Positions 10,083 to 39,396 of a stretch of 64,000 nucleotides of DNA are shown one piece after another. Numbering within the stretch: the stretch's first letter is position 1; each line of letters starts with the position of its first letter. The position numbers were made by a program, and so were the translations under genes. The DNA is from an uncultured Gammaproteobacteria bacterium (GTDB lineage Bacteria; Pseudomonadota; Gammaproteobacteria; Ga0077536). The stretch lies in NCBI GenBank assembly GCA_942490995.1, contig CALOBG010000021.1:91388-155387 (forward strand), written 5' to 3'. Below the pieces are notes generated by a model, which saw nothing but the letters and a program-made list of their open reading frames with translations, searched no databases and had not been told where the DNA came from.

Positions 10083-12011
10083 TCAGCCGGTTACCGCCTG
10101 CGCGTCAGCGCCGCTCGCCGCTTCGAGCGCCTCGCTGGCTTTCAGCCACTGCTGTTCGGCGCGGTCCAATTCCTGCTTGCATCGCCGTTGTTCGAGCAGC
10201 AGGCGGTTTAACTCATCCTTGCGCTCGGCGTCGTACAGGGCATTGTCGGCGAGAGTCGCAACCAGTGCGGTGAGACGGCTTTCGGCGCTGGCGATGGTCT
10301 GTTCGTGGCGTTTGATCTCGGCGCGCAGCCGGCTGCTGAGATTTCGTTGCTCGGCTTCGCGGCGTTTACGTTCGCGCTTGTTGCGCGCCGAGTTGTCACC
10401 CTCTGCGGCGCCGGCCGGCTTCGCGGCCTGACGCGTATCGGCGCGTGATTGCAGCAGCCAGCGCGCGTAATCGTCGAGGTCACCGTCAAAATCATCGACC
10501 GTCGCGTCGTGCACGAATTTGAGGGTATCGCTGACGGACTGCAGCAGGTAGCGGTCGTGAGAGACCACCACCAGCGCACCTTCGTAAGCCTGCAGCGCCA
10601 CACCCAGAGCGTGGCGCATTTCCAGGTCGAGGTGGTTGGTCGGCTCGTCGAGAAGCAGGAGATTGGGTTTCTGGCGGATGATCGCGGCCAGCACCAGGCG
10701 CGCTTTTTCACCGCCGGATAATGGCGCGATCGGGCCCAGGGCGGCATTGCCGGAGAAGGCGAAACCGCCGAGATGTTTGCGCAGCGTACTCTCCGCGGCG
10801 CGCGGCTCGAGCCGCTGCAGAAACGACAGCGGGGTCTCGTCACCACGCAGCTGTTCGACCTGGTGCTGGGCGAAATAAGCGGCGCGCAGATCGCGTGCGC
10901 GCTCGACTTCGCCATTCTGGGCGGCCAGTTCGCCGACCAGGGCCTTGATCAAGGTCGACTTACCCGCGCCGTTCGCGCCCAGCAGACCGATGCGGTCGCC
11001 CGGCATGATCGTCATCGTCACGCGGTTGAGCACGGTCGTGTCGCCATAACCGAAATCGGCGGCCTGCACCGAAACCAGCTGGTTGGGTATCTTGTCCGGC
11101 GCTTCGAAGGCGAAAGAAAACGGCGAATCGACGTGGGCCGGGGCGATCAGTTCGAGACGCGCGAGCGCTTTCAGGCGACTTTGCGCCTGGCGCGCCTTGG
11201 TCGCCTTGGCGCGAAACCGCTCGACGAACTTCTGCATGTGCTGGATGTCACGCTGCTGTTTGACGTAGGCCGCCTGCTGGCCGGCCAGGCGCGCGGCCCG
11301 CTGCTGCTCGAAGTCGGAATAGTTACCGGTGTAAAGCGCGACTTTCTGATTTTCGATATGCACGATGTGGGTACATACCGCGTCGAGAAAATCCCTGTCA
11401 TGAGAAATCAACAGCAACATGCCCTGGTATTCGCGCAACCAGCTCTCGAGCCAGATGATGGCGTCGAGATCGAGGTGGTTGGTGGGTTCGTCGAGCAGCA
11501 GCAGGTCCGAGCGGCACATCAGCGCGCGGGCAAGGTTCAGGCGCATGCGCCAGCCGCCGGAAAACTCGCTGAACAGGCGGATCTGTTCCTGTTCGCCGAA
11601 ACCGAGACCAGCCAGCAGCTTCGCGGCGCGGGTATCGGCGTGGTAGCCGCCGACGTGGTCGATAGCCTCGTGGGCCAGGGCCAGGCGATGGCCGTCATCG
11701 CCCGCTTCGGCCGCCGCCAGCTCCTCCCGCGCCGCGACCAGGGCGCGATCGCCGGCGATAACGTAATCGAGCGCTCTGACCGCGAGCGCTTCGACTTCCT
11801 GCGAAACGCTGGCGATTTCAAGCCCGCTCGGGACCGAGACCTCGCCGCTGTCGGCCTGCAGCTGCCCTTCGAGCATGGCGAACAGGCTGGTTTTGCCAAC
11901 GCCATTGGCGCCCGTGACGCCGGTGCGCTGGCCTTGATGGACGCTCAGGTCCGCGCCGTCGAACAACACCCTCGGACCGCGCCGCAGGGAAACCTGGCTG
12001 AGTTTGATCAT
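10083..12011 (-). CDS. ABC-F family ATPase (two ABC cassettes plus a C-terminal coiled coil; Uup/YheS/EttA-like).
   Basis: Two Walker A motifs (GANGVGKTS; GANGAGKST) and two ABC signatures (LSGGWRMRLNLA; LSGGEKARLVLA) with D-loops. The C-terminus is K/E/R-rich and helical. The start was set at MIKLSQVSL (12011) in place of the upstream ORF-track Met. Confidence 0.85.
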   Translation of the reverse strand: MIKLSQVSLRRGPRVLFDGADLSVHQGQRTGVTGANGVGKTSLFAMLEGQLQADSGEVSVPSGLEIASVSQEVEALAVRALDYVIAGDRALVAAREELAAAEAGDDGHRLALAHEAIDHVGGYHADTRAAKLLAGLGFGEQEQIRLFSEFSGGWRMRLNLARALMCRSDLLLLDEPTNHLDLDAIIWLESWLREYQGMLLLISHDRDFLDAVCTHIVHIENQKVALYTGNYSDFEQQRAARLAGQQAAYVKQQRDIQHMQKFVERFRAKATKARQAQSRLKALARLELIAPAHVDSPFSFAFEAPDKIPNQLVSVQAADFGYGDTTVLNRVTMTIMPGDRIGLLGANGAGKSTLIKALVGELAAQNGEVERARDLRAAYFAQHQVEQLRGDETPLSFLQRLEPRAAESTLRKHLGGFAFSGNAALGPIAPLSGGEKARLVLAAIIRQKPNLLLLDEPTNHLDLEMRHALGVALQAYEGALVVVSHDRYLLQSVSDTLKFVHDATVDDFDGDLDDYARWLLQSRADTRQAAKPAGAAEGDNSARNKRERKRREAEQRNLSSRLRAEIKRHEQTIASAESRLTALVATLADNALYDAERKDELNRLLLEQRRCKQELDRAEQQWLKASEALEAASGADAQAVTG

Positions 12012-12055
12012 GGGCGCGCAGTGTAGCCGGAACACGGCCGCGCCGCAGCCCACAG

Positions 12056-12343
12056 GCTGGTGAAAAACTACTGCGGATGCCGTGGGCGGCGTTGTGCACT
12101 CGGCAGCCAGCCTCATTTACACCAGTAAACTCCGGTCCTCGTCTCGCGCACGCCTTGCCCACGGCATTCCCGGCTCACGTTTTTGACCAGCCTGTCCGTG
12201 CTGGTGAAAAACTACTGCGGATGCCGTGGACGGCGTTGTGCACTCGGCAGCCAGCCTCATTTACACCAGTAAACTCCGGTCCTCGTCTCGCGCACGCCCT
12301 GCCCACGGCGTTCCCGGCTCACGTTTTTGACCAGCCTGTTGCG
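12056..12343. repeat. Two tandem copies of a ~144-bp intergenic repeat unit (copy starts at 12056 and 12200).
   Basis: Near-identical direct repeats beginning gctggtgaaaaactactgcggatgccgtgg… and ending …cccggctcacgtttttgaccagcctgt. Each unit has an internal 12-bp inverted repeat (gatgccgtgggc / gcccacggcatt). Confidence 0.85.
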
Positions 12344-12345
12344 AT

Positions 12346-12768
12346 TCAGCGCTGCTGCTGGGCGGCCGGCAGGCTGTCGATGTGGTCGACCCAATCGAGG
12401 GCTGAGCGTCGCCATACCTGGCGGCTCGGCCTGAGTTCGCGCAACTGGTTGAGAACGCCGGCGCGCAGACCGTACACCTTTGGCCCATCGCCAACGCTGG
12501 TTGCGTAAATGTGGGAACCGCAGTCAGCGCAGAAACCCTGCGCGCGCGGGTTGCCACTGGCAGCCGTCTTGACGTAAATCCTCGGCTCACCACTGACCAG
12601 TCGCAGCGCGTCCGGGTGCGTGAAAGCCACGACGCGATAAGCTGTGCCGGACAGTTTCTGGCAGTCGGTGCAATGGCAGATCACGACATTTTCGCTGTCG
12701 ATTTCGGCTTCGAAACGGATCGCTCCGCAGTGACATTCGCCATCAACTTTCATGATTTCCGCCTCCAC
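12346..12768 (-). CDS. GFA-family (glutathione-dependent formaldehyde-activating / CENP-V-like) zinc protein.
   Basis: Cys ladder CHCGAIRF…CHCTDCQK…CADCGSHI, characteristic of the GFA fold. 140 aa (alternative start M6). Confidence 0.75.
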   Translation of the reverse strand: MEAEIMKVDGECHCGAIRFEAEIDSENVVICHCTDCQKLSGTAYRVVAFTHPDALRLVSGEPRIYVKTAASGNPRAQGFCADCGSHIYATSVGDGPKVYGLRAGVLNQLRELRPSRQVWRRSALDWVDHIDSLPAAQQQR

Positions 12769-18369: not shown

Positions 18370-19884
18370 TCAGGCCGCCGATTTCCTTTCTGCGGTAGCT
18401 GCGGCGACTGCGGTCTCGGCAGGTGCCGGGTTCGTGAATTCCAGCGCGCCGTCCGCAATCGGCTGGTGACGGATGGTCTGTTTGTCGAGCGCGTAATTCT
18501 GCGTATTACGCCACGGATCGCGATCGCCCTGCTTGGGAAACAGGTGCATGCCGCGGCGCATGTAGCCGGGTGAAAAATTTTCGATCATCAGGTGCGTGCC
18601 CATGCCTCGGTCTTCCGCGCGCAGGCGCGGCGTGCACTGGCTGACCCCGTGTTCGTCCATGTGATTGATCAACCGGCACACGTATTCGGCGACAAGTTCA
18701 GAGCGCAGCGTCCAGGAAGCATTGATGTAGCCGATGGTGTAAACAAGATTGGGCACATCGGAAAACATCATGCCTTTGTAGGAATACGTCTCCGGGAACT
18801 GAACCACCTCGCCGTCAACGCTGAATTCGGCGCCGCCGAGTACCTTCAGCTCGAGCCCGGTAGCGGAAACGATAATGTCCGCCTCCAGGGTCGCGCCCGA
18901 CTTGAGCGCGATACCCTCGGCCGTGAACCGTTCGATTTCGTCGGTGACGACGTCGGCCTTGCCGGCCTTGATCGCTTCGAACAGGTCGGCATCCGGTACC
19001 AGGCACAGGCGCTGGTCCCAGGGGTTGTAGCGCGGCGTGAAGTGCTTTTCGACGTCGTAGTCGGGCCCGAGATGTTTGCGCAACAGGCCGAGTAACTGGC
19101 GTTTGACCTTGTCCGGATTAACTCGCGTCTGTTTGTACACGTAGCGCTGGAATTCGACGTTTTTCCAGCGGATCAATCGATAAGCAAGTTTCTCGGGCAA
19201 CAGCTTGCGCAGGATGCCGGCGACCTTGTCTTCGGCCGGCATCGACACCACCCAGGTCGGTGACCGCTGCAGCATGGTGACTTTGGCCGCGCTCGCTGCC
19301 ATTGCCGGCACCAGCGTCATGGCGGTCGCGCCGCTACCGATGATAACCACCCGCTTGCCGCTGTAATCGAGATCTTCGGGCCATTGCTGAGGATGGACCA
19401 CGCGGCCGGCGAACGCGTCGCGATCGGCAAACTCCGGCTCATACCCGTGGCTGTAATTGTAGTACCCGCTGCACACGAACAGCATGGTGCAGCTGACCTG
19501 GCCGCGCTCACCGCCAGTCGCGGCGGCGGTAGTTATGGTCCAGCGGCTGTCGGCGCTCGACCATGCCGCGGATTCCATGCGCTGCCCGAAGCGGATGTGC
19601 TCGAGCAGGCCGCGCTCAGCGGCCGCCTCCCTGACATAGGCGAGGATCGACGGACCATCGGCAATCGCCTTCGGATCGAGCCACGGCTTGGAGTCGTAGC
19701 CCATGGTGTACATATCACTGTCGGAACGGATGCCGGGATAGCGAAACAGATCCCAGGTTCCGCCGATGCTGTCGCGCGCTTCGAGGATGGCAAATGATTT
19801 GCCCGGGCACTTGTCCTGCAGTTGGCGAGCCGCTCCGATACCGGACAAACCGGCCCCAACAATGATGACGTCAAAATGGTCCAT
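18370..19884 (-). CDS. Baeyer-Villiger-type flavin monooxygenase (EthA-like).
   Basis: DVIIVGAGLSGIGAA, GGTWDLFRYPGIRSD, BVMO fingerprint FAGRVVHPQQWPED, and a second Rossmann fold GKRVVIIGSGATA. The start is at M14 (19884). Confidence 0.8.
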   Translation of the reverse strand: MDHFDVIIVGAGLSGIGAARQLQDKCPGKSFAILEARDSIGGTWDLFRYPGIRSDSDMYTMGYDSKPWLDPKAIADGPSILAYVREAAAERGLLEHIRFGQRMESAAWSSADSRWTITTAAATGGERGQVSCTMLFVCSGYYNYSHGYEPEFADRDAFAGRVVHPQQWPEDLDYSGKRVVIIGSGATAMTLVPAMAASAAKVTMLQRSPTWVVSMPAEDKVAGILRKLLPEKLAYRLIRWKNVEFQRYVYKQTRVNPDKVKRQLLGLLRKHLGPDYDVEKHFTPRYNPWDQRLCLVPDADLFEAIKAGKADVVTDEIERFTAEGIALKSGATLEADIIVSATGLELKVLGGAEFSVDGEVVQFPETYSYKGMMFSDVPNLVYTIGYINASWTLRSELVAEYVCRLINHMDEHGVSQCTPRLRAEDRGMGTHLMIENFSPGYMRRGMHLFPKQGDRDPWRNTQNYALDKQTIRHQPIADGALEFTNPAPAETAVAAATAERKSAA

Positions 19885-19953
19885 TAAGCTGCTCCGAATC
19901 GAATTCCACGCCGGTCGCAACATGATAACCCGACCCGGCCGGTACGGGCCCTG

Positions 19954-21159
19954 CTAGAACGGATTATTTGACTCCAGGCCCAGCGATATCCGCCCCAGTT
20001 GTTCGGAAATGCGATCGACGTGCCCGTTGATATGCAGCGGCATGGCCTGAAAATCGCGATAGCGCCGCTCGAAATCGGTGCCCTCGCGCAAGCCATTGCC
20101 ACCGAGCACGCGCAGGATCAACCCCATCGCTTCGTCACACAACATCACCGCCTGCATGCCGGCCGCGGTCTGGCGGAAATAGTCTGCTTCCACCGGCATG
20201 GCGGTAGCGGCAATGCGCGCATCGGTTTCAACCAGGGCGGCGTAGACGGTATCGGTGGCGGCGTTGATCAACGCGCCGGCGCGACCGAGATTGACGTGGA
20301 TGGTCGGTCGTTCAACCATTCTGGTTCCGAAAATCGCAATCCGATCGCGAATGCCGGCTGCGGTTTCCAGCAGCGAAATCTCCGCTACCCCGGTAGCCAT
20401 CGCGCCCAGCCACAACACCGATAATGCAACCCAGTCCTCACGGTAGCGCTGATTGATCATCGGGTGTTGCGGATCGCGGAACGGTACCCGGTACTTCGGC
20501 GGCCACGGTACAACCCGCGCGCTCGGCACCGCCAACTGGTCGTAATAAATGTGATCGGTGGCGCTGGCGCGGACACTCATCGCGTCCCAGGTCGGATCGA
20601 TACGCACGCGCGGATCACGCAGGTCGGCAAGCGTGAACTGCGGTGTCGCGGCGCTGTCTTCGTTGAATACAACGCCGGCCCATTCGGCATAGCGCGCGCC
20701 GGAGCCAAACGCCGCGACGCCGCTCAGCAGGGTTTCGTCCTCGACTACCGTAGCGGCAACTTTCGACGCTGCCCCGGCCGGGAAACACACCCACTCATGG
20801 CGGGAAACCAGCTGACCGAGAAAATCGCTATGCCGGGGTCCCAGCAACCCGGCGAAATGGTGAAAGGTGCACAAATGATTCCACAGACACCAGGCGGTCG
20901 AGGTACAGGCCTGCGCGAGAGCGCGCAGCTCGTTTGCTATCGCAACCATGCTGCCGTCGAGTCCCGCGATCTCGGCACTGGCGGACAGGCGCATGATGTC
21001 ATTGGCCTTGAGGGCGTCGATCACCCCGGCGTCGACCGAGCGGCTGGCATCGGCGGCCGCTGCCTGTGCCGCTATCTGCTCCAGCAACGGGGCCAGGTAC
21101 CGCGCATCGTCCCACAGGCGACCTCGAGGTGATGGACGCCCATCGCTGGCCTGGTTCAT
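19954..21159 (-). CDS. Acyl-CoA-dehydrogenase-fold flavin monooxygenase (DszC/SfnB-like, Acyl-CoA_dh_2 type).
   Basis: ACAD-like three-domain layout with no catalytic Glu context typical of true ACADs. The start was set at MNQASDG (21159), because the longer ORF-track N-terminus runs into the intergenic repeat. Confidence 0.55.
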   Translation of the reverse strand: MNQASDGRPSPRGRLWDDARYLAPLLEQIAAQAAAADASRSVDAGVIDALKANDIMRLSASAEIAGLDGSMVAIANELRALAQACTSTAWCLWNHLCTFHHFAGLLGPRHSDFLGQLVSRHEWVCFPAGAASKVAATVVEDETLLSGVAAFGSGARYAEWAGVVFNEDSAATPQFTLADLRDPRVRIDPTWDAMSVRASATDHIYYDQLAVPSARVVPWPPKYRVPFRDPQHPMINQRYREDWVALSVLWLGAMATGVAEISLLETAAGIRDRIAIFGTRMVERPTIHVNLGRAGALINAATDTVYAALVETDARIAATAMPVEADYFRQTAAGMQAVMLCDEAMGLILRVLGGNGLREGTDFERRYRDFQAMPLHINGHVDRISEQLGRISLGLESNNPF

Positions 21160-21240
21160 GGATATTCCCTCGTTGACGTCGTGGACGACGGATCCTACCA
21201 GCCGTTGAATGGCCAGCGGCAGGAGATGGGTTAGCCCGGT

Positions 21241-21476
21241 GGTTAAAACCGTGAGCCGGGAAAGCCACGCGCAAGGCGCAGGCGAACCCGCAACGCCGCG
21301 CACGACCTCCGCAGTAGTTTTTCACCAGCCTGGGCAGGCTGGTCAAAAGCGTAGCGAGGGAAGGTCGGGCGCAAGGCGCGGGCGAGACGAGGACCGGAGT
21401 TTATGCGGATAAATGAGGACCGCAGGCGAGTCCGCAACGCCGCGCACGACCTCCGCAGTAGTTTTTCACCAGCCTG
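21241..21476. repeat. Second locus of the ~144-bp repeat family: one full unit (21333-21476) plus one shortened unit (21241-21332), inverted relative to locus 1.
   Basis: …ccgcagtagtttttcaccagcc… is the reverse complement of gctggtgaaaaactactgcgg at 12056 and 12200. ~75-80% identity to the locus-1 units. The shortened copy lacks the central ~50 nt. Confidence 0.8.
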
Positions 21477-21517
21477 ATAGACTCACACTCAGATCCCAAG
21501 CCGCTCGGAGACAGGAT

Positions 21518-22522
21518 ATGAAAGCCGATGCCGTTATCAGTACGGACCTCGAACGGTGCGCGGCCGAGGCCCAAGAGCTCGAAGCACTCGGCTTTGCCGG
21601 CGTCAAATCGATCGAAACCGCGCACGATCCGTTTCTACCCCTGCTGCTGGCCGCGCAGCGCACCCGGTCGGTCGATCTCATCACCGGCATAGCCGTGGCC
21701 TTTGCCCGCTCGCCGATGATCATGGCGAACCTCGGGCACGACCTCAACGCTGCTGCACACGGCCGCTTCGTGCTCGGCCTCGGTTCACAGATCCGGCCGC
21801 ACATCACACGGCGCTTTTCCATGCCGTGGTCGGCGCCGGCGGCGCGTATGCGCGAATTCATCCTCGCCATGCGCGCGATCTGGAACTGCTGGTACCACGG
21901 CGAGCCGCTGAACTTCAGCGGCGAGTTCTATACCCATACCTTGATGACGCCGTTTTTTACCCCGACCAACACCGAGTTTGGTCCGCCACGGGTCCATCTC
22001 GCCGCGGTCGGACCGCTGATGACCGAGGTCGCGGGCGAGGTTGCCGATGGCCTGCTGGTGCATGGCTTTACCACCGAGACCTATCTGCGTGAGGTAACGT
22101 TGCCGGCACTCGACCGCGGGCTCGCACGCTCGCAGCGATCGCGCGCCGATGTCGAAATCTCCTATCCGGTTTTTACGGTTAGCGGTCGCGACGAACAGGA
22201 ATTACGCCGGGCGAGGAGCAAAATGCGCGAACAGATCGCGTTCTACGGGTCGACCCCGGCCTACAAACCGGTCCTTGACTCGATTGGTGCGGGCGAGCTG
22301 CAGCCGCAGTTGAACGCGCTGTCCAAGCAGGGACGCTGGCAGGCGATGGGTGAATTGATCGACGACGCCTTGCTTGAACAATTCGCGGTCTGCGGGGAGC
22401 CCGGCCAGGTGGCGCGGGACATTCGCCGACGCTTCGGCGATATCGTCGATCGTACCGCCGCCGCCTATGCGGAACTCGATCGAGCACAGCGTATCGAATT
22501 CCTCGAAGCGTTGTCCGCATAA
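21518..22522 (+). CDS. LLM-class (luciferase-like) flavin-dependent oxidoreductase.
   Basis: TIM-barrel LLM pattern (…GRFVLGLGSQIRPHI…) with GGAG 8 nt upstream of ATG 21518. The ORF-track N-terminal extension is read-through of the repeat. Confidence 0.7.
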   Translation: MKADAVISTDLERCAAEAQELEALGFAGVKSIETAHDPFLPLLLAAQRTRSVDLITGIAVAFARSPMIMANLGHDLNAAAHGRFVLGLGSQIRPHITRRFSMPWSAPAARMREFILAMRAIWNCWYHGEPLNFSGEFYTHTLMTPFFTPTNTEFGPPRVHLAAVGPLMTEVAGEVADGLLVHGFTTETYLREVTLPALDRGLARSQRSRADVEISYPVFTVSGRDEQELRRARSKMREQIAFYGSTPAYKPVLDSIGAGELQPQLNALSKQGRWQAMGELIDDALLEQFAVCGEPGQVARDIRRRFGDIVDRTAAAYAELDRAQRIEFLEALSA

Positions 22523-29925: not shown

Positions 29926-30713
29926 TTAATCGCCCTGACCACAACCATTGACCGCGCCCACCAGGCGTCCTGCACGTCCTGCGGAATATCCAGCGCGTCT
30001 ACCCGCGACAGGTGGATGGCGCTGAAATGTTCGAACAGCCGGCGCTGGTGACCGCGACTCAGCGAATCGATTTCGTTGGACAGATAGGTGAAGCTGCCGC
30101 CAGGATGCAGGTGGGCCGCGGCGTGGGCAAAAAAATGCTCGGCGAAAGTTGTACTGGCAGCGATCTGTTCGATGAACTCGTCTTCGTTCAAGGGGTAGGT
30201 GTGAAAAAAAATCCCATCGAATGCTCCCAATTGCGGCAGAACGTCCTGCCACATGCCGCCGAGCATCTCGATTGCTCGGTCAGGATAGCTATCGCGCCAG
30301 CGCTGAAATCGCCCGATGATATGCTCATTGCATTCGATAATCGTGTGGGTACTAACGCCGCAATCCTGGATCAGGGCCGAGGCAATCCCACGGCCGAAAC
30401 CGATTTCCAGGATATCGCCGTGACTGACCGTCACCGCGTCGGCCATCGCGCGCATCAACGGGATCTGCCAGTCTTCCATGATCTGCTCGTCGCTCAGTTC
30501 AGCCTGCGCGCGGTCCGCGGTGACCAGCTTATCGCTGCCGGCCACGAGCTCGCCCGCCGTGCGGTCCAGCGCGAGCAGGTTATCGGCCAATTCGCTGACC
30601 GCCCGGTTGAGCAGCCAGTTGCGCTGCGCGTCGCGTGGCGGACGGATAAAATCCTCGCGTTTGATCTCGAGGCTGATCGCAAAATCCCGCGTCTTTTTGT
30701 AGCGTCTGGTCAT
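29922..30713 (-). CDS. SAM-dependent methyltransferase of the guanidinoacetate N-methyltransferase (GAMT/RMT2-like) fold.
   Basis: QIPLMRAMADAVTVSHGDILEIGFGRGIAS…THTIIECNEHIIGRFQRW…MWQDVLPQLGAFDGIFFHTYPLNEDEF aligns closely with mammalian GAMT (…RVLEVGFGMAIAAS…HWIIECNDGVFQRL…[29 protein letters not shown]). ATGA overlaps at both ends. Confidence 0.8.
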   Translation of the reverse strand: MTRRYKKTRDFAISLEIKREDFIRPPRDAQRNWLLNRAVSELADNLLALDRTAGELVAGSDKLVTADRAQAELSDEQIMEDWQIPLMRAMADAVTVSHGDILEIGFGRGIASALIQDCGVSTHTIIECNEHIIGRFQRWRDSYPDRAIEMLGGMWQDVLPQLGAFDGIFFHTYPLNEDEFIEQIAASTTFAEHFFAHAAAHLHPGGSFTYLSNEIDSLSRGHQRRLFEHFSAIHLSRVDALDIPQDVQDAWWARSMVVVRAIK

Positions 30714-33577
30714 GTTTGCGCCCGGCTCGTCGAAGTCTGCTCGAATGCGCCAAGGTCACTGAGTGCGGCAGCCACTTCTATTTCGGTGAGTCCCTCAACC
30801 CGCTCCAGCAAGGCGGATACGATTTCATCTGGCAGCGCTGTCAGCGCGGTCTCCAGCTTTTCCATGTCGCCGTCCGTAATCGGGGCCAGACTTGCACGAT
30901 CGGCCACGAACACCATCGCTTCCGCGACGTCCGCGTGCTGCTGCAGCGCCGCTTCGACTTCTTCCGGTTCGATACGAAAGCCACGTACCTTGACCTGGTG
31001 GTCGATACGCCCAAGAAACTCGAAGCGGCCGTCGCGCAGTTGGCGAACCCGGTCGCCGGTCCGGTAGAGGCGCGGATCCGGCTCGGCTCGGAACGGATTG
31101 TCGATGAAGTTCTCAACATTGCGCGGGTCGTCGCCGACATAGCCGGCGGCGATGCACACGCCTCCTATCAGTAACTCGCCCTCGGCGCCGAGGGGCACCG
31201 GCCGTAGCTGCGCGTCGACGACGTAGGTGGAGACGTGGGGCAGCGGCCTGCCGATGGTGACGCGGGTAGCAGCGCCGTCGGCGGTGAGCTCCGCCATCGT
31301 TGCCCACACCGTCGCTTCGGTTGGCCCGTACTCGTTGTACAAAGCGGTGTTCGGCAGTTGCCGGCAGTGCTCGAGCTGCAGCCGCGCCGGACATGCCTCG
31401 CCCGCAACGATAACGCTACGCAGGTCCGGCAGCGCGACGCCGCCGAGCTGCTCGACAATGAGCGCGTGCAGGCTTGGCAGGCACAGCACATGGGTGATCC
31501 CCTCACTGGCGATGCGTGCAACCAGGCCGGCCATGTCCTGCTCGGCCCGCGCGCGCGGCAACACCAGGGTGCCACCGGTGGTCAGCGTCCAGAACAGACC
31601 GGCCACCGAGCTGTCCGTCGCCAATGACGACAAAAGTAGAAACCTGGCCGGATCATGACCATAAACCTGGCTACGCGCCGCTGTCGCAACCTGTAGCTGG
31701 CGGTGAGAAATCATCACCCCTTTGGCAGCGCCGGTGCTGCCCGAAGTGAACATCACGTAGGCCAGGGTGTCGGCGTCACTGGCCACCACGGCCGCCGCCG
31801 CGGCCGGCGAAGCAGGCGCTGTATCGGTGCACAGCGCCTGCCACGGTGGCGGTACATGCGCGGCTGCGACGGAGGTCGTCACGACCACGCCGGCCTGACC
31901 ATCCGCAGCGGCGAGCGTCGCCAGCAGGGCCGCGATGCGCGCTGGTGGGTGCGACGTATCCAGCGGTACGTAGGCGCCTCCGGCAAACAGGATCGCAAGG
32001 ATCGCAACAATCGCCTCGCTATCGCGCGCCATCAGCACCGGCACGCTGTTGCCTGCGGCGACGCCACGCTCGGCAAGCGTAGTGGCCAGCACCGCAGCGC
32101 GTTCGACAAGTTCCGCGTAGCTGAGCTCGCCGCGTTCGTCGCGCACGGCAATCGCCTGCGGTGTGCGCAAGGCTACCTCGACAATCCGCTCATGGATCCC
32201 GCCGCGAACCGAAGTCGATGCCGCGGGCGGCAACGCGGGCGCAAGCAGCCGCGCCTGTTCGTTGGGACTACACGGCGGCGCCTGCTTGAGTGGTTGCGCC
32301 ATGCCGGCGTTCATGAATGCCAACGTAGCGATGACGTGCTGCAGCAGCGACTCGACGAACTCGTCGCCGAACTTCGCGCGATCGTAGACCGCGATGAGTT
32401 CCAGTTCGGCCCCGGGCACGGCAAGCAGGGCAAAAGGATAGTGGCTGAATTCGCGGTAGTTTTCCTCGCTCGGCGCCAGTGCCGCCCCCCCGCCGTCGCC
32501 GGCGGCGGCAAAATTCTCGACCACCAGGATGGTGTCAAACAACGGTGTCCCCGGCGCCACCGCACTCCATTTCTGGATCTCGGCAAGCGGCGTCTGTTCA
32601 AATTGACGCGCCGCCAGGTGTGCTGCCTGGATCGCATGCAGGTAGTCACCCAGACTGGCCTGCGACGAGATGGCGATCCGTTGCGGCAAGGTGTTGATGA
32701 ACAGGCCGACGATCGATTCCGCGCCGTGCAGGTCGGCGGGGCGGCCGTGACTGGTCGTGCCGAAGACGACGTCGTCACTGCCGGCGTGGCGAGCGAGTAC
32801 CCACGCGTAGGCGCCGGCGAGCATGGTGTAAAAAGTCAGCCGTTGTTCGCGCGCCAGCCTCTGCAGGGCTTGCCATCGCTCGCCGTCGAGCACCTCGCAG
32901 CGTGTCGCCCCGGCGCCTGCCGGGCCCGCGCTCGTGGCCTCGGATCCGGCATCGACGAGCCGCGTAGGTGCTGCGAAACCATCCAGTGCCGAGCGCCAGT
33001 AGCTGTGCGCGGCCGTGTGATCCCGCTGCTCCAGCCAGCGCACGAATGTTTCAAAGGCCGGCGCCGCCGGCGCGCGCGCTGACGATCCATAAGCCGCGGC
33101 GAGCTCGTTCAGGACCAGGCGAGCCGACCAGCCGTCAACCACGAGGTGGTGGAAGCTCCATAGCATGCGCCACGAGTCCGCGCCGAGACGGAACAACGCA
33201 ACGCGCAGCAGCGGTGCCTGTTCGAGTACGAAACCGCGCGCCCGGTCAGCGTCGAGGAAAGCCGCGAAACGAGCGCTCTGGTCCGCGGCCGGCAGGTCGC
33301 TCCAGTCCTCATCGTGCCACGGCAGGTCGACCTGCCGGCGAACCAGCTGCAGGGGTTTTTGCCGTCCCTCCCAGCTGAACAGGGTACGCAGGGCATCGTG
33401 GCGCTGAACGATCCCGCACCAGGCTTCGCGCAGACGTTGCGGGTCGATAGCCTGCTCGTAACGACAACTGTACTGGTCGAAGTAGACGCGCTCATCGGGC
33501 CGGCGCAGGGTGTGGTAGAGGATCCCTTCCTGCATCGGGGTCAGGCGATAAATCGCCTTGATGTTGCTGTCTGCCAT
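30710..33577 (-). CDS. NRPS fragment: condensation domain + A-domain core (motifs A1-A8), ending just after A8.
   Basis: C: HHLVVDGWS. A: LAYVMFTSGSTGAAKG (A3), YNEYGPTEATV (A5), YRTGDRV (A7), GRIDHQVKVRGFRIEPEEVE (A8), then HADVAEAMVFV. The probable start is MADSNIK at 33577 (ORF-track Met at 33628). Confidence 0.8.
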   Translation of the reverse strand: MADSNIKAIYRLTPMQEGILYHTLRRPDERVYFDQYSCRYEQAIDPQRLREAWCGIVQRHDALRTLFSWEGRQKPLQLVRRQVDLPWHDEDWSDLPAADQSARFAAFLDADRARGFVLEQAPLLRVALFRLGADSWRMLWSFHHLVVDGWSARLVLNELAAAYGSSARAPAAPAFETFVRWLEQRDHTAAHSYWRSALDGFAAPTRLVDAGSEATSAGPAGAGATRCEVLDGERWQALQRLAREQRLTFYTMLAGAYAWVLARHAGSDDVVFGTTSHGRPADLHGAESIVGLFINTLPQRIAISSQASLGDYLHAIQAAHLAARQFEQTPLAEIQKWSAVAPGTPLFDTILVVENFAAAGDGGGAALAPSEENYREFSHYPFALLAVPGAELELIAVYDRAKFGDEFVESLLQHVIATLAFMNAGMAQPLKQAPPCSPNEQARLLAPALPPAASTSVRGGIHERIVEVALRTPQAIAVRDERGELSYAELVERAAVLATTLAERGVAAGNSVPVLMARDSEAIVAILAILFAGGAYVPLDTSHPPARIAALLATLAAADGQAGVVVTTSVAAAHVPPPWQALCTDTAPASPAAAAAVVASDADTLAYVMFTSGSTGAAKGVMISHRQLQVATAARSQVYGHDPARFLLLSSLATDSSVAGLFWTLTTGGTLVLPRARAEQDMAGLVARIASEGITHVLCLPSLHALIVEQLGGVALPDLRSVIVAGEACPARLQLEHCRQLPNTALYNEYGPTEATVWATMAELTADGAATRVTIGRPLPHVSTYVVDAQLRPVPLGAEGELLIGGVCIAAGYVGDDPRNVENFIDNPFRAEPDPRLYRTGDRVRQLRDGRFEFLGRIDHQVKVRGFRIEPEEVEAALQQHADVAEAMVFVADRASLAPITDGDMEKLETALTALPDEIVSALLERVEGLTEIEVAAALSDLGAFEQTSTSRAQT

Positions 33578-33590
33578 ATGCCCGGCGTCC

Positions 33591-36500
33591 CTACTCGCCA
33601 AACTCTGCGAGCACGCGGTCGAGTTCACCCTGGTCGACGTCGGCGGCAGGGAAATCCGAGGGCGTCAGGGCCGCGACGGCGCCGCTCGCGGCAAGCTCGA
33701 TGATGGCGCCCAGTTCGCCAATGACAGCGCCCGCGAGGTGCTGGATGGTCGAAGGCCGATAACAATCAGCAGCATAGGACCAGTCCAGCCGTAGTCGACC
33801 GTCAAAAATGTACGCATTGATTTCGAGCAGGTAGGGACGCGGTCCGGTAGCAGCCGTTACCGCGCGCAGCGGCCCCGACAGGCGCACACGCGCGTCACCG
33901 CGCGTAGCCCTGTCCCATTGGCCGAGATAATTGAACAATACCGGCGCAGAACCGGCACGCGAGACGCGCTCAGCGCCGTAATGAAGCAGGTTGTATCCGG
34001 CGCCGTGGGCGGGCACCGCACGCAGCTTTTCCTTGACCTGCCTGACGGTTTCAATCAGCGTCTCGCCGCTGCGACACTCAAACAACACCGGGTAGATGCT
34101 CGTGAACCAACCCACGGTGCGGGTCAGATCCATACCTTCGACCAGGGCTTCGCGGCCATGGCCTTCGAGGTCGAATTTCAGCAGCGACCCGCCGTGCCAG
34201 CGCGCCAGCACGCGAACCACGCCGGCAAGCAGGACTTCTGGCACCTGGACACGCCAGCTCGCCGGCACCTGATGGACCAATGCCGCGGTCTGTTCGCGAT
34301 CGAGCCTGCTCGTCAAGCGTGTACTGCTGGCATAGTCGTTCACGCTTTCGGGGTAATCGCAGCGCAGGGTCATGACACTGGCATCAATCTGTGCCCAGTA
34401 CTCCGCCTCGGCTGGCCCGGCGCTGCCCGCGTGCTGCGCCGCCAGCGCCAGCGCCCAATCCGCCACCGCGGTGGTTTTGCGCGGTAGCGTCACCGCCGCG
34501 TGGGCTGCCAGCTGCTGGCACGCTCGCTCGAGGTCATCAAGCAGTATCCACCATGACACGCCATCGATGAGCAGGTGGTGCACGGCAATTACCAGCAGAG
34601 AAGCCGGTTGATCGGCGCCGCGTGGCAGCCAGCGCAACTGCACCAGCGGACCGCGTTCGATATCCATCGTGCCGTTCATTGCGTCGATCAGGGCATCGAG
34701 ATCGCTGGCGCTTTCTTCTCCCGGTGCCGGGCCGGGTATCGGCGTCGCCGCGACGCTCGGCGGGTCTATACACTGCCGCCAACCGTTGGCCCTGCGCTCG
34801 AAACGACTGCGCAGGACATCATGATGGGCCACGACCTGCGCCCACGCCTGGGTCAGCACCGTAACCTCCAGACCCGCGTCGACTTCGACCACGGCAACCT
34901 GACTCAGCGCTGGCGGCGGGTCCTCAGCGAGTTCGAAAAAGCGCCGTTGCATCGGCAGCAGCTCAACCTCACCTTCGACAGGTCCCTGTGTTGCGGACGT
35001 CGTGGGAACGTCGCGGCATACCGCGGCCGCCGCGGCCACGGTCGGAAAGTCAAACAGATCCTGCGGCGTCAGTTCGAGGCCCGCGGCCCGGGCTCGCGCG
35101 ACAATCTGAATATTGAGAATCGAGTCGCCGCCGAGGTCAAAAAAATTGTCATTGATGCCGATGCGGGCAAGACCGAAAACTTCACACCAGATGCCGGCGA
35201 GCAGGTGTTCGTTACGGCTGACCGGCGCGACAAATTCTGTATCCAGACCGGTGCGGGCATACTGCGGCGCCGGCAGGCGTGCGCGATCGAGTTTGCCATT
35301 CCCGGTCAACGGCACGGCCTCCAGCCGTACGAAATGGCGCGGCAGGTATTCCGACGGCAATCGCGCGCCGAGGTGCTCCAGCAGGCGGCCGCGATCCAGC
35401 TCGTCATCGGCGACGTAATAAGCGATCAGCTCGATGTGCCGACGGGTCGCTGCGGACGCTTCTTGATGGTGGTAGCCGATAGACGCGAGTATGCGTCTGA
35501 CGTTTTCGATGTTGATATCGTCATCGAGTTCGGCGAGGGCGGCGTTGCGCTCCTTGTGGCCGAGCCTCACATCCCAGCTATAAGGCAAGGCGTAGTTGTG
35601 ATGCCGGCGCTCGGTTTTGTGTACGTGGATGCCGGCCTCATTGATCAGACAATTTGTCGAACGCCCGGTGTCCGCCGGACGGACCCAGGGCGCGCCGTGC
35701 TGCAGATAATCGAGCATGTCACCCAGGGTCGCGTCGCAGTAGCGGTAGAAATCGACAAACTTGATTTCCTCGAACACGCGATCGGATCGGAACAGCGAGA
35801 CGTCGAGCGCCGCGGATACCGCGTCGTGCATGCGATGATAAATCTTGCGTGCTTCGATGATATTGCGATCGATTTCAGCAGGATCGTAAATTTTCTGCCG
35901 AAACTGATCGGCGACCCGGGTCTCGAAGATCTGTCCGCGCGAAAGTCCGGTAAAGATGTGGCGTATGCCGCGTTCGTGAGCGAGATTCATCGACAGCGTG
36001 TATATGGTCTTGAAGCAGCCATTGCAGACATTGCTGTGACGCTTGAGGCTGTCGACGAAGATAGCGTCCATCGCGGGCGTGGTGGCACTGACCAGTTCGA
36101 GTCCGAGTTTATCGACCACCCGGCGGATGTTGTCTTTCGCCCCATCGGAGATGTAGCCGTTGTCGAGGGTAAAGACCAGCGGCGTCAGACCGAGATCGAC
36201 AAGCTGGCACAGCGCGTAGGTACTGTCCTTGCCGCCGCTCAACAGCATCATGCAGTCCGGCGTGCGCGGTGTCGCTGCCCGCACTTCGGCAACGATGTTC
36301 TCGAGGTCCTGCTGGTCGCCGAAATAGCGCATCGCCTGTTCGCGCTCGCGGGCGAAACGGCGGCAGATGCCACACACCCCGGCGCCGTCGAGATCGGCAT
36401 CGGGATGATTGGAGGCGAGACCGCAATGCACGCAGTACTCGATTTCCTGCGCCCGTGCTTCGCGGTCGTCGGCAATCACCACCGCTTCACGCAGCCCCGG

Positions 36501-39134
36501 ATAAGCGGCGAGGACGCTTTCGATTTCGCCCAGCTCGATCCTGATCCCGTTGACCTTGACCTGTTGATCGATGCGTCCAAGATATTCGAGCCGGCCGTCG
36601 GCGTTCCATCGAGCCAGGTCGCCGCTGAGATACATACGCCCACCACGATTGAACGGATCGTCAACGAAGCGGGCCGCGGTTTCCTCATCGCGGCCGAGAT
36701 AACCCAACGCGACCCCGGCGCCGCCTATCGCGATTTCGCCAGCGACACCGCGCGGCTGCAGACCAAGCCTGCTGTCCAGAACGTAGATTGTCGCGCCGTC
36801 AATCGGGCGGCCTATCGGTACCGAGATATCCGTATCGGCATGCGGGTCGAAACGATGGATCATGCATCCGACGGTCGCCTCGGTCGGCCCGTACTCGTTG
36901 TAGATCTCAATCTCGTCGTTGAAATATTTCGAAACCGTACGCGCAACATCGGTTTTCAGGTCGTCGCCGCCGAGGATCATGACCCGCAGCCGCGAATGAG
37001 TCAGATCCATCGCTTGCAACAGCGCCAGGTGCGCGGGCGTAAGCTTGATGATATCGGCGCGGTTGTCCTCGATCACCCGTCGTAAGACGATGTCGCGGCC
37101 GCCCTCGAGTTCCGGGTAGACCAGTACCCGCCCGCCGCTCAGCAACGGCAGGAAACACGTCGTTACCGTCAGATCGAAAGCCATGGCCGTGAACAGGGGA
37201 AAGGTCAGCTGCGCGCCGCGCACATACTGACGCTCCGCCCAGTCGAGATAATTGACAACATTGGCGTGGGTCACGGCAACGCCTTTCGGAGCACCGCTCG
37301 ACCCCGAAGTGTAGATGACGTAGACACGATCGTTGGCCGTTACTACAGGCGCCGGATTGCTATCGGGACGCCCCGCCGCGGCGCGCGCGAAATCCGCGTA
37401 GACCTCGGTCGCCCAGCGTTCGTCACGCGGCTGGCCCGCGGCGGAATCGACCAGCCACAGTCGCGCGCCGGCGTCCGCAACGCAGTGCGCGCGACGCGCG
37501 CCGGGATCGTTCGTGGACAGCGGCAGGTACGCCGCACCGCATTTGATCACCGCTAGCATTGCGATCACTGCCTCGGCAGAGCGGCGCATGCCAAGCGCAA
37601 CCACGTCGCCCGCGCCGATGCCGCGCGCACGCAATTCGTGCGCGAGACGGTTGGCGTCGCTGTTCAAGCTGCCGTAGTTCCATACCACGCCGTCACATTC
37701 GAGCGCCGGCAAATCACGATGGCGCGCTGCACAGTGCTCGAAACGCGCGCCCAGGGTCAGCGTCCGATCTGCGGAGGTCTGGATCCGCCCTCGCGCGACG
37801 GAGAGCAGGGCGCGGCGGGCCGCGGCGTCAAGGAGATTTACGGCGGTTATCGAACCTTCAGGTTGGTCAACAAATGCGTCAATGATGGCGAGCAGGTGCC
37901 GCCGCGCGGCATCCGCGTCATCGACACTGAAGCTGTCCTCGTTGAGATCGAGAAACAGCCCGAAAACGTCGGCCTGGTCGAAATCGTGCACCTGCAGACG
38001 CAACACGTGGTTGCGATCGCCATAGCCCGCATGCACCCACTCGGCGGTGGTCGGATGCGCATCGAACTCGCCGAACTCGGCGGTGATGTAATTCAGTACC
38101 ACGTTAATGCCGCGGACCTGGTCAAAACCGCTTGCGCCGGGCTGCGCGTTGAGCAGGAATGCCCGTGCCTCGCGCGCGACCTGCTGGTACACGCTCGCGA
38201 ATGTGTCGTCGGCGCTGAGGGTGAGCGTCAACGGGAAGATTTCGATGAACAGGCCAGCGGTCTGCTTGAACGACTTGCTCGATCGATTGTGCGCCGGCGT
38301 GCCGATCACCACCTCACCAACGCCGGTGATCCGGTACAGGTAGACCGCGAGCGCGGTAAAAAAAATCTGAAAGCGCGCCAGGTCGCTGTTGAAGGCGCGA
38401 AACGCCGGCGCTTCGGCGAGCGCTCGAATCGCTCGCGAGCGGTCTGCACCAAGCGCTACCGCGTAGCGCCGGGTACGGCCGCTGCGGGTCGGCGCCGGGC
38501 GCCGATAAAACTGCGGCACCGGACCGCTCAGATCGCCCTTGGCGCGCCAGTATTCGCGCGCGCGCCGGCACGCCCGCGAGTCCTGGTGACGTCGTTCGTA
38601 CTCGACATAGTCGCGGTAGGGAGGCAGCGCAGGCGTCGGCGTTTCGAGGCCGGACCTGGCGGCCTGATACAGCGCGCTCATATGGCGGAAAATCACCGAT
38701 ACCGACCAGGCATCGGTGACGACGTGGTGTTGGTTGAAATACCACACCGATTCCTGCGCGGAAAGGTACAACAGTGCGGTATCGAACAGGCGACGCGCGT
38801 AGTCGAACGGGCGCCGCGCGCGGGCCTCCAGCCATGCGGCCAGGGCCTCGCGCGGATCACGGCGGCTGGAGAAGTCGACGGTTTCGAGGGCGAAATCCAT
38901 CGTTTCGAGGACGCGCTGGCGCGACTCCCCGGCGTCTTCGTCGATGACCGTACGCATCGCACCGCAGCCCTGCAGCAGGGCGCGAAACGCCCGCTCGAAG
39001 GCATCGGCGTCAAGCGCCGTACCGATATGAAAGGCAAGCACCATGTTGTACAGCGGGTCGTCAGGCTGCAGTCGCTGCCCGGTCCAGATCAGTTCCTGCG
39101 CTCGAGTCAGCCGCATGGACGCTTGATCTTCCAT
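33591..39134 (-). CDS. NRPS: C - A - PCP - C, with the A domain interrupted between A8 and A9 by a ~340-aa TtcA/TtuA-like PP-loop domain.
   Basis: C1 HHVVTDAWS; A3 YTSGSSGAPKG; A4 FDLT; A5 YNEYGPTEATV; A8 GRIDQQVKVNGIRIELGEIE; insertion aa ~899-1237; A9/A10 LPSEYLP…NGKLDR; PCP FFDLGGDSIL; C2 HHLLIDGVSW. 1847 aa. Confidence 0.9.
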   Translation of the reverse strand: MEDQASMRLTRAQELIWTGQRLQPDDPLYNMVLAFHIGTALDADAFERAFRALLQGCGAMRTVIDEDAGESRQRVLETMDFALETVDFSSRRDPREALAAWLEARARRPFDYARRLFDTALLYLSAQESVWYFNQHHVVTDAWSVSVIFRHMSALYQAARSGLETPTPALPPYRDYVEYERRHQDSRACRRAREYWRAKGDLSGPVPQFYRRPAPTRSGRTRRYAVALGADRSRAIRALAEAPAFRAFNSDLARFQIFFTALAVYLYRITGVGEVVIGTPAHNRSSKSFKQTAGLFIEIFPLTLTLSADDTFASVYQQVAREARAFLLNAQPGASGFDQVRGINVVLNYITAEFGEFDAHPTTAEWVHAGYGDRNHVLRLQVHDFDQADVFGLFLDLNEDSFSVDDADAARRHLLAIIDAFVDQPEGSITAVNLLDAAARRALLSVARGRIQTSADRTLTLGARFEHCAARHRDLPALECDGVVWNYGSLNSDANRLAHELRARGIGAGDVVALGMRRSAEAVIAMLAVIKCGAAYLPLSTNDPGARRAHCVADAGARLWLVDSAAGQPRDERWATEVYADFARAAAGRPDSNPAPVVTANDRVYVIYTSGSSGAPKGVAVTHANVVNYLDWAERQYVRGAQLTFPLFTAMAFDLTVTTCFLPLLSGGRVLVYPELEGGRDIVLRRVIEDNRADIIKLTPAHLALLQAMDLTHSRLRVMILGGDDLKTDVARTVSKYFNDEIEIYNEYGPTEATVGCMIHRFDPHADTDISVPIGRPIDGATIYVLDSRLGLQPRGVAGEIAIGGAGVALGYLGRDEETAARFVDDPFNRGGRMYLSGDLARWNADGRLEYLGRIDQQVKVNGIRIELGEIESVLAAYPGLREAVVIADDREARAQEIEYCVHCGLASNHPDADLDGAGVCGICRRFAREREQAMRYFGDQQDLENIVAEVRAATPRTPDCMMLLSGGKDSTYALCQLVDLGLTPLVFTLDNGYISDGAKDNIRRVVDKLGLELVSATTPAMDAIFVDSLKRHSNVCNGCFKTIYTLSMNLAHERGIRHIFTGLSRGQIFETRVADQFRQKIYDPAEIDRNIIEARKIYHRMHDAVSAALDVSLFRSDRVFEEIKFVDFYRYCDATLGDMLDYLQHGAPWVRPADTGRSTNCLINEAGIHVHKTERRHHNYALPYSWDVRLGHKERNAALAELDDDINIENVRRILASIGYHHQEASAATRRHIELIAYYVADDELDRGRLLEHLGARLPSEYLPRHFVRLEAVPLTGNGKLDRARLPAPQYARTGLDTEFVAPVSRNEHLLAGIWCEVFGLARIGINDNFFDLGGDSILNIQIVARARAAGLELTPQDLFDFPTVAAAAAVCRDVPTTSATQGPVEGEVELLPMQRRFFELAEDPPPALSQVAVVEVDAGLEVTVLTQAWAQVVAHHDVLRSRFERRANGWRQCIDPPSVAATPIPGPAPGEESASDLDALIDAMNGTMDIERGPLVQLRWLPRGADQPASLLVIAVHHLLIDGVSWWILLDDLERACQQLAAHAAVTLPRKTTAVADWALALAAQHAGSAGPAEAEYWAQIDASVMTLRCDYPESVNDYASSTRLTSRLDREQTAALVHQVPASWRVQVPEVLLAGVVRVLARWHGGSLLKFDLEGHGREALVEGMDLTRTVGWFTSIYPVLFECRSGETLIETVRQVKEKLRAVPAHGAGYNLLHYGAERVSRAGSAPVLFNYLGQWDRATRGDARVRLSGPLRAVTAATGPRPYLLEINAYIFDGRLRLDWSYAADCYRPSTIQHLAGAVIGELGAIIELAASGAVAALTPSDFPAADVDQGELDRVLAEFGE
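35430..36440 (-). other. Embedded PP-loop ATP pyrophosphatase (adenine-nucleotide alpha-hydrolase) domain of the TtcA/TtuA/Ncs6 type inside the NRPS A domain.
   Basis: CxxC-x16-CxxC (CVHCG…CGIC, aa 901-924), P-loop SGGKDS (aa 966-971; nt 36222-36239 verified), CNGC (aa 1037/1040) and a distal Cys1133 at TtuA-like spacings. Confidence 0.6.
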
Positions 39135-39140
39135 GTCCGT

Positions 39141-39383
39141 CTAGTCGTGGCTGCGCTGCGCGACGTAGGCGGCGATGGTGTTGATCGAACGGAAGTACTC
39201 GATACTGAAATCCTGTGGCGGGATCTCGAACCCGTAGGTCTCCTCGAGGTAACCGACCAGGCGCACCATACCGAGCGAATCGACCACCCCGTCATTGAGC
39301 AGCATATCGTCGTCGCCGACCACGTGCGGACCTTCGAGCAGCTCGTCGTGGATAAAAGCAGCGATGGTGTCCCTGATATTCAC
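39141..39383 (-). CDS. Stand-alone peptidyl/acyl carrier protein.
   Basis: 80 aa, phosphopantetheine-attachment serine in …DGVVDSLGMVRLV…. Sits 13 nt downstream of the stand-alone A domain. Confidence 0.75.
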   Translation of the reverse strand: MNIRDTIAAFIHDELLEGPHVVGDDDMLLNDGVVDSLGMVRLVGYLEETYGFEIPPQDFSIEYFRSINTIAAYVAQRSHD

Positions 39384-39396
39384 GCTCGCTCCTCGC

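Follow-up and report, generated by a model that had tools for sequence, protein, structure and literature searches.

The 64,000-nucleotide stretch of DNA analysed in this study (hereafter, the window) comes from an uncultured Gammaproteobacteria bacterium (assembly GCA_942490995.1, contig CALOBG010000021.1) and holds a pair of repeat units in a divergent intergenic spacer. This spacer is bordered by a gene for an acyl-CoA dehydrogenase-type (DszC-like) flavoenzyme (19954..21159, minus strand; Pfam Acyl-CoA_dh_2, E 5e-15) and by a luciferase-like monooxygenase gene (21518..22522, plus strand; Pfam Bac_luciferase, E 7e-58), whose homologues are named TIGR03617 or F420-dependent by the sources. 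The 358 nt between the two start codons consist mostly of the two repeat units, and this array, referred to here as locus 2, lies 75 nt from the start codon of the acyl-CoA-dehydrogenase-like gene and 41 nt from that of the luciferase-like gene. Unit A (21335..21476, minus strand) is a full-length copy of 142 nt, scored by the covariance model R1 at 147.8 bits in the sense and 29.8 bits in the antisense direction. Unit B (21235..21332, minus strand), delimited by repeat comparison, is a 98-nt copy without about 50 central bases, namely the hairpin tip. The two units run head-to-tail, both on the minus strand. The original prediction, namely a full and a centrally deleted unit between these two genes and inverted relative to another locus of the same family, was therefore confirmed, with one correction at the boundary: the 3′ terminal repeat of unit B is degenerate (ACGGTTTTAACCACCGGG), and, when it is counted in, the unit reaches 21235 and not 21241. 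The 5′ 56 nt of unit B are 96% identical to unit A, and its 3′ part carries the motif CCCGGCTCACG of locus 1; judged from these segments, unit B looks like a chimera of the two window types.

Locus 1 consists of two full-length units on the plus strand. Unit 1 (12053..12194; R1 157.5 bits) is followed by unit 2 (12197..12338), which was recognized by repeat comparison as a tandem duplicate of unit 1, with 98% identity and a period of 144; the 5′ terminal repeat of unit 2 has decayed to CGTG.... On one side of this array lies an ABC-F ATPase gene (10083..12011, minus strand; Pfam ABC_tran twice plus ABC_tran_Xtn; P0144, 100% identical), whose start codon is 41 nt away, and on the other a gene for a GFA-family protein (12346..12768, minus strand; Pfam GFA, E 2e-31), whose stop codon is 7 nt away. 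Loci 1 and 2 are mutually inverted and 79–80% complementary over 139–199 nt. The window contains exactly four copies of the block GCTGGTGAAAAACTACTGCGG, at 12056 and 12200 on the plus strand and at 21309 and 21453 on the minus strand, when none is expected by chance, and the block AAACTCCGGTCCTCGTCTCGC occurs three times, being absent from the deleted unit B. Within the window, the conserved blocks are confined to these two loci, and the open reading frames that cross the units are mechanical run-ons of neighbouring frames.

Other features of the window were also recorded. A flavin-containing (Baeyer-Villiger-type) monooxygenase gene (18370-19923) adjoins the acyl-CoA-dehydrogenase-like gene in an oxygenase-rich region, and non-ribosomal peptide synthetase genes with Condensation, AMP-binding, and PP-binding domains occupy 30710-40980. 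The repeated modules of these synthetases account for families D2, D5, and D13 among the direct repeats that the scan reported.

Every full copy of the repeat starts with the 16-bp sequence CAGGCTGGTGAAAAAC and ends with its inverted complement. At the 5′ end of unit A this terminal inverted repeat (21461..21476, minus strand) is identical to an insertion-sequence end found at L009, one of the loci collected from other genomes. A motif scan located the other copies at 21317-21332(-) and 21335-21350(+) in locus 2 and at 12053-12068(+), 12179-12194(-), 12197-12212(+), and 12323-12338(-) in locus 1, giving seven matches at the two loci, when chance alone predicts 0.25 over the entire window. The locus-2 array is bordered at its 5′ end by CTAT (21477..21480, minus strand; element orientation), one half of a decayed 4-bp target duplication, and at its 3′ end by CTAA (21231..21234, minus strand; element orientation), which has three of four bases in common with the CTAT flank. 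At locus 1, no target duplication is left.

The family outside the window was searched for with the exact 20-mer CTGGTGAAAAACTACTGCGG in species-representative genomes and in metagenome and viral collections. The species-representative genomes yielded 14 loci with the 20-mer, 12 of which carry the element: five in the Gammaproteobacteria MAG C2-GNP5-20, three in the Gammaproteobacteria MAG HK-STAS-PROT-138, one in a third Gammaproteobacteria MAG, one in an Alphaproteobacteria MAG with a tandem array, and two in Geobacteraceae MAGs; L001 holds only the first ~40 nt of the element, cut at the end of the locus. At L003:1987 and L012:1467, the 20-mer lies in or at the end of long open reading frames and the rest of the unit is absent, so these were set aside as chance matches or remnants. 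The metagenome collection added eight further loci, including a 52-nt copy, a 212-nt copy with an insertion, and one truncated copy. The 52-nt mini-copy (L017:536-587) is reduced to its two terminal repeats, which only a few bases separate. The model R1 also detects more distant members at L027:11078-11226 and L003:3488-3618. In the viral collection no copy was found, as its four 18-mer matches are due to chance and do not fit R1; likewise, a blastn search of one unit against 72,556 plasmids gave no match, and a full-text literature search for the terminal sequences returned no relevant paper. The family appears to be undescribed. A TPP riboswitch (RF00059, 71.6 bits) found near an element copy on a metagenome contig (L016:1-98) is unrelated to the repeat.

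The GC content of the family is 58–64%. At least six copies occur in five contigs of C2-GNP5-20, and five of them, at unrelated loci, are 95–98.6% identical. The closest relatives of the window copies are found in other genomes, at 91.5% and 89.4% identity. Subfamilies are mixed: the ATGCCGTGGGC type and the AGGYCGTGCGC type occur together in the L011 array and likewise in the window. Two other kinds of repeat were considered and dropped. An integron attC site is contradicted by the ends GAAAAAC ... GTTTTTC, which have purines where RYYYAAC ... GTTRRRY needs pyrimidines, and by inspection there are no cassettes between the units; a CRISPR-like array was likewise rejected.

The flanks of the copies provided evidence on how the element inserts. 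The 4-bp flanks have the consensus YTAR, and, compared as direct repeats across 21 copies or arrays, they match at 50 of 84 positions versus 39.9 in shuffles (P≈0.007), while compared as inverted repeats they show no match (P 0.34). Examples are TTAC/TTAC (L002), TTAA/TTAA, and CTAG/CTAG. Copies lie between convergent, divergent, and tandem genes, and relative to the upstream gene about five are in sense and about six in antisense orientation. At L014:1393-1395, L017:533-535, and L020:9361-9363, and also at L004, the stop codon of a gene is the TAG or TAA of the flank, and the open reading frames L004:45-1655 and L007:1649-2323 end, at L004:1645-1655 and L007:1649-1659, in a TGA inside the terminal repeat. 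An empty orthologous site was not recovered among the relatives compared, since synteny broke at every site: the closest luciferase-like homologue (78% identity) has another gene context, the synteny of L007 with the window at 16.3-17.8 kb stops before the L007 copy, and neither of the two closest ABC-F homologues adjoins a GFA gene.

The junctions inside tandem arrays comprise 2–3 nt without TA: TC at locus 1 (12194-12197) and CC at locus 2 (21332-21335) in the window, CCC at L020 (9215-9222), and CTG three times at L011 (1080-1375). They thus differ from the 4-bp YTAR expected from adjacent insertion or from duplication through target repeats, and may hint at abutted-end intermediates or at the targeting of a resident end.

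The ends of the repeat were traced to insertion sequences. In C2-GNP5-20, the locus L009:1-292 reads ctaa|CAGGCTGGTGAAAAAC, followed by unrelated DNA and then by the last 53 codons of a DDE transposase. This insertion-sequence end matches the MITE end at 16/16 positions, and the coding fragment, which comprises 53 residues only and lies at an apparent contig end, hits Pfam DDE_Tnp_1_6 (PF13751) with NF033581, IS5 family, as its best NCBIfam match. Homologous elements of 1318 and 1319 bp with DUF772 and DDE open reading frames occur at L031 and L033; both have the ends CAGGCTGNNGAAAAAC and CTAG on both sides, and the N-terminal open reading frame of L031 scores 150.6 bits with NF033581 (cut-off 140). 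An intact element of 1305 bp, annotated by PGAP as IS5 family, is present on the Azospirillum sp. TSH58 plasmid NZ_CP022365.1. It encodes a 358-aa transposase that reaches 269 bits with NF033581 (cut-off 140), has CAGGCCGCGGAAAAAG and CAGGGTGCGGAAAAAC as its ends, and sits within a direct duplication, CTAT/CTAT, that is not a palindrome. The transposases behind these ends combine DUF772 with DDE_Tnp_1 and have NF033581 as best match, and neither a transposase nor a full-length partner was found in the 64-kb window. A second, different IS5-family fragment (DUF772 open reading frame, best match NF033578) was observed at L032:3588-7580, about 2.4 kb from an element with a matching end at 4579, suggesting that insertion sequences are nested or decayed in this area.

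Apart from the 16-bp ends, the repeat bears no similarity to these insertion sequences, so it represents the type of MITE that shares just its terminal repeats with the parent. Such MITEs with IS5-family parents are known from Porphyromonas and Neisseria (PMC4596501), and IS5 is reported to duplicate 5′-YTAR-3′ (PMC5009759). The units are 142 nt long (variants 52–212), within the range of about 50–1000 bp for prokaryotic MITEs, have no coding capacity, bear terminal repeats with target duplications, and lie dispersed in several similar copies within one genome, as is characteristic of MITEs. Based on this evidence, we consider the repeat to be a non-coding MITE with IS5-family terminal inverted repeats, with a probability of roughly 0.85. 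Of the REP/MITE-like nature originally proposed, the MITE part is thus upheld by the ends, duplications, and dispersed copies, while the REP part is contradicted by the target duplications and the DDE partner. The original prediction had also set against itself the case of a known IS-derived terminal repeat, and in spirit this is what was found, the termini being IS5-family terminal inverted repeats.

The second property of the family is its fold. Full units form long imperfect end-to-end hairpins, with −57 to −72 kcal/mol (z −2.8 to −6.5) as RNA on either strand and −33 to −39 kcal/mol (z −3.9 to −6.2) as DNA. In the window, the hairpin of unit 1 of locus 1 reaches −72.1 kcal/mol (z −6.5) and that of unit A −63.3 kcal/mol (z −5.3), while the deleted unit B folds no better than its shuffles (z −0.4 to −0.7). 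In the stem arms, the comparison of GATGCCGTGGGC/GCCCACGGCATT with GAGGTCGTGCGC/GCGCCCGACCTT gives the changes T-A to G-C, C-G to T-A, and G-C to C-G, together with a single T·C mismatch. These three compensatory pairs and the mismatch agree fully with the earlier reading of the window. R1, which was built from 23 copies, scores them at 88–166 bits on the sense strand and never above 46 bits on the antisense strand, a difference indicating that the element is not a simple symmetric palindrome.

Covariation was counted in an alignment of 23 copies from several genomes, with the hairpin of the first window unit as the structure. Standard pairs fill 83.6% of the observed cells compared with 78.1% after shuffling and 31–42% in controls with a slid structure, a comparison in which a structure taken from one member favours the true hairpin over its slid versions. 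The numbers of pairs with double changes are the robust measures. Twenty-two pairs are changed on both sides compared with 12.9±1.9 in shuffles (0/500 reach 22) and 7–16 in slid controls, and 69 cells show a two-sided change compared with 28.5 in shuffles and 10–29 in slid controls. As these counts clearly exceed the controls, the compensatory changes are real and statistically upheld, and the covariation proposed from two loci was thereby sustained on a larger set of copies.

RNAalifold, applied to an alignment of 18 copies, gave independent evidence of two-sided changes in that stem. The nine most variable pairs occur in 18 distinct arm combinations, and in this variable stem the arms of one copy form 7.1/9 pairs on average compared with 5.0/9 for arms taken from different copies; the pairing is imperfect in many copies, at five to seven of nine. 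The apical stem switches from TTTAC...GTAAA to TTTAT...ATAAA, and two neighbouring units of the array at L011:1085-1515, L011a and L011c, differ in the variable stem by a clean G-C to A-T double change (ATACCGTGG/CCACGGTAT versus ATGCCGTGG/CCACGGCAT). Also conserved throughout the family are mismatches and asymmetric internal loops, for example CTACTGCGG facing CCTCGCKACG. Departures from pairing are G·T at 20 pair positions and A·C at 22; these similar counts do not single out either strand as the one that folds, and the excess of G·T cells (88 versus 47 for A·C) is due to three wobbles fixed in the family.

Several other explanations were weighed against the MITE. Strong hairpins with real compensatory changes, and interior blocks conserved across distant hosts, would also be expected of a structured non-coding RNA, whether a small RNA or a cis-regulatory leader, with the hairpin under selection at the RNA level; both window loci lie 41 nt upstream of a start codon and are probably transcribed in leader or intercistronic RNA, and, in our interpretation, unit B owes its pairing entirely to G·T wobbles of the sense strand. 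However, no Rfam family matched at the gathering or a permissive threshold: the window gave no hit, the two loci gave only noise (E above 0.09), and in 15 other loci no hit lay over the copies. The promoter scan of both loci revealed no promoter-like site, and the terminator scan revealed two weak terminator-like sites inside unit A and none at the unit ends. The copies take both orientations relative to the upstream gene in nearly equal numbers, there is no strand asymmetry beyond the three fixed wobbles, and target duplications, insertion-sequence-type ends, deletion variants, arrays, and recent bursts are features of transposons. We therefore regard an RNA as very improbable, and the small RNA that the original prediction had offered as one possibility was not supported. 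Even less credit is given to a REP/REPIN-type element, which would be moved by a RAYT (an IS200/IS605-like tyrosine transposase) acting on single-stranded hairpins. The long hairpin, the CTAC/GTAG tetranucleotides just inside each terminal repeat, the clustering of copies, and, as we interpret it, the GTAG-plus-hairpin shape of the array junction recall such elements, but the flanks act as 4-bp direct duplications, and to our knowledge Y1 transposases (IS200/IS605, REP/RAYT) make no target duplications. Furthermore, in one genome (C2-GNP5-20) the ends match those of a resident DDE element of the IS5 family exactly, neither half of the unit forms a short palindrome such as the 20–40 nt units of REP elements, and no RAYT gene was seen in the window. 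An IS630/Tc1-mariner-type MITE, which would insert at the TA within CTAG and duplicate TA only, deserves equally little weight. CTAG is the classic IS630 target and is included in the flank consensus YTAR, the ends begin with CAGG beside TA, and the terminal repeat appears to resemble the Tc1 terminal repeat, CAGTGCTGGCCAAAAAG; nevertheless, the outer flank positions are also direct repeats, as in TTAC/TTAC (L002) and in CTAT/CTAT of the Azospirillum element, and the partner transposases are of the DUF772 plus DDE_Tnp_1 type with NF033581, IS5 family, as best match.

A different question is what caused the covariation. The original prediction had ascribed it to selection on secondary structure; the covariation itself stands, but selection is not its sole reading, since template switching during replication turns imperfect inverted repeats into better ones with no need for selection (PMC7202029). 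The compensatory changes of the same MITE could therefore be without functional meaning, having arisen by template switching or by copying between the arms rather than by selection on folding, and this account, which concerns only the cause of the covariation and is compatible with the MITE explanation, is one that we hold at somewhat below even odds. Besides the established mechanism at imperfect inverted repeats, it is favoured by the missing strand asymmetry, by the double change between the array neighbours L011a and L011c, and by the imperfect pairing of the variable stem in many copies. Against it, the mismatches and asymmetric loops are conserved and not corrected away, which argues that one arm is not freely corrected against the other. 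Both the absence of strand bias and the L011a/L011c double change are compatible with either selection or template switching. It is rather doubtful, in our estimation, that the interior hairpin is needed for the spread or use of the element, with the fold-back of the whole unit under selection. If it is, single-stranded or cruciform DNA may join the two IS5-type ends, or an RNA signal for processing or stability may work in either orientation, and the variable yet paired stem segment would mark lineages of active master copies. Similarly doubtful is the idea that the head-to-tail arrays are relics of transposition intermediates with abutted ends (circles or dimers), which are not known to be documented for this IS5 clade.

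Based on the MITE interpretation, the following mechanism is proposed. A DDE transposase supplied by a full-length element elsewhere in the genome would bind the 16-bp ends and mobilise the MITE in trans, and insertion would take place at YTAR sites, duplicating those 4 bp. As YTAR should be scarce in GC-rich genomes, the tolerated sites would mostly be stop codons and intergenic DNA, so copies would often come to abut gene ends; the inserted DNA could then supply the stop codon, as TAG or TAA from the flank or TGA from the terminal repeat. The interior, which is unrelated to the insertion sequence, forms an imperfect palindrome over its full length whose pairing is kept by changes in both arms, either because the fold-back aids the spread of the element or because template switching corrects one arm against the other.

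In the window, the copies were reshaped locally, by tandem duplication at locus 1 and by loss of the hairpin tip from one unit at locus 2. We infer that the window copies are old and no longer mobile, since the two loci are about 80% alike, the closest relatives are found in other genomes, the duplications have decayed, and the 64 kb contain no transposase. In all likelihood they are passive passengers. Conservation of the interior across phyla exceeds what a pure passenger would need, and this leaves room for a function.

These data can be compared with known systems. With the IS5 group, including E. coli IS5 and the Azospirillum sp. TSH58 element, the repeat shares 16-bp terminal inverted repeats of the form CAGG...GAAAAAC and 4-bp direct target duplications at YTAR-like sites (PMC5009759), whereas it lacks a transposase and has no sequence in common outside those ends. 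The type II MITEs with IS5-family terminal repeats, namely BrickBuilt and MITE293/700 of Porphyromonas gingivalis and ATR of Neisseria meningitidis (ISNme1), are similarly short and non-coding and have only terminal repeats in common with IS5-family elements of the same genome (PMC4596501). They differ from the window family in sequence, hosts, and GC content, and the window family has a hairpin spanning its entire interior and lacks an internal minisatellite. Another resemblance is to bacterial repeats that are palindromic from end to end, such as bcr1 of the Bacillus cereus group, ERIC, and the Correia element, which are about 125–155 bp long, intergenic, often co-transcribed, and folded end to end. 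Compensatory base changes that keep the structure were reported for bcr1 (PMC3184786), so the phenomenon itself has a precedent among bacterial intergenic repeats. Unlike the window family, however, the parent transposase is known for few of these families; their target duplications also differ (5 bp for bcr1, TA for Correia), and they have no sequence similarity to the repeat described here.

Concerning the local consequences, about 240–290 bp of hairpin DNA lie within 41–75 nt of three start codons, so the promoters of these genes must lie inside or beyond the repeats. The leaders of the neighbouring genes may therefore be strongly structured, and the units of locus 1 are almost certainly transcribed in antisense between the GFA and ABC-F genes. 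The most that the window copies would do is add long hairpins to the leaders or intercistronic transcripts of their neighbours.

Assigning the family to the IS5-type MITEs strikes off one candidate "novel structured RNA". The consensus, the 16-bp ends, the YTAR duplication, and the covariance model provide masking tools for this family in MAGs of GC-rich proteobacteria. The family is also a clear-cut example of a DNA transposon that shows paired changes and for which the type of transposase is known, and may be used to ask whether the fold-back of a MITE is selected or is produced by template switching.
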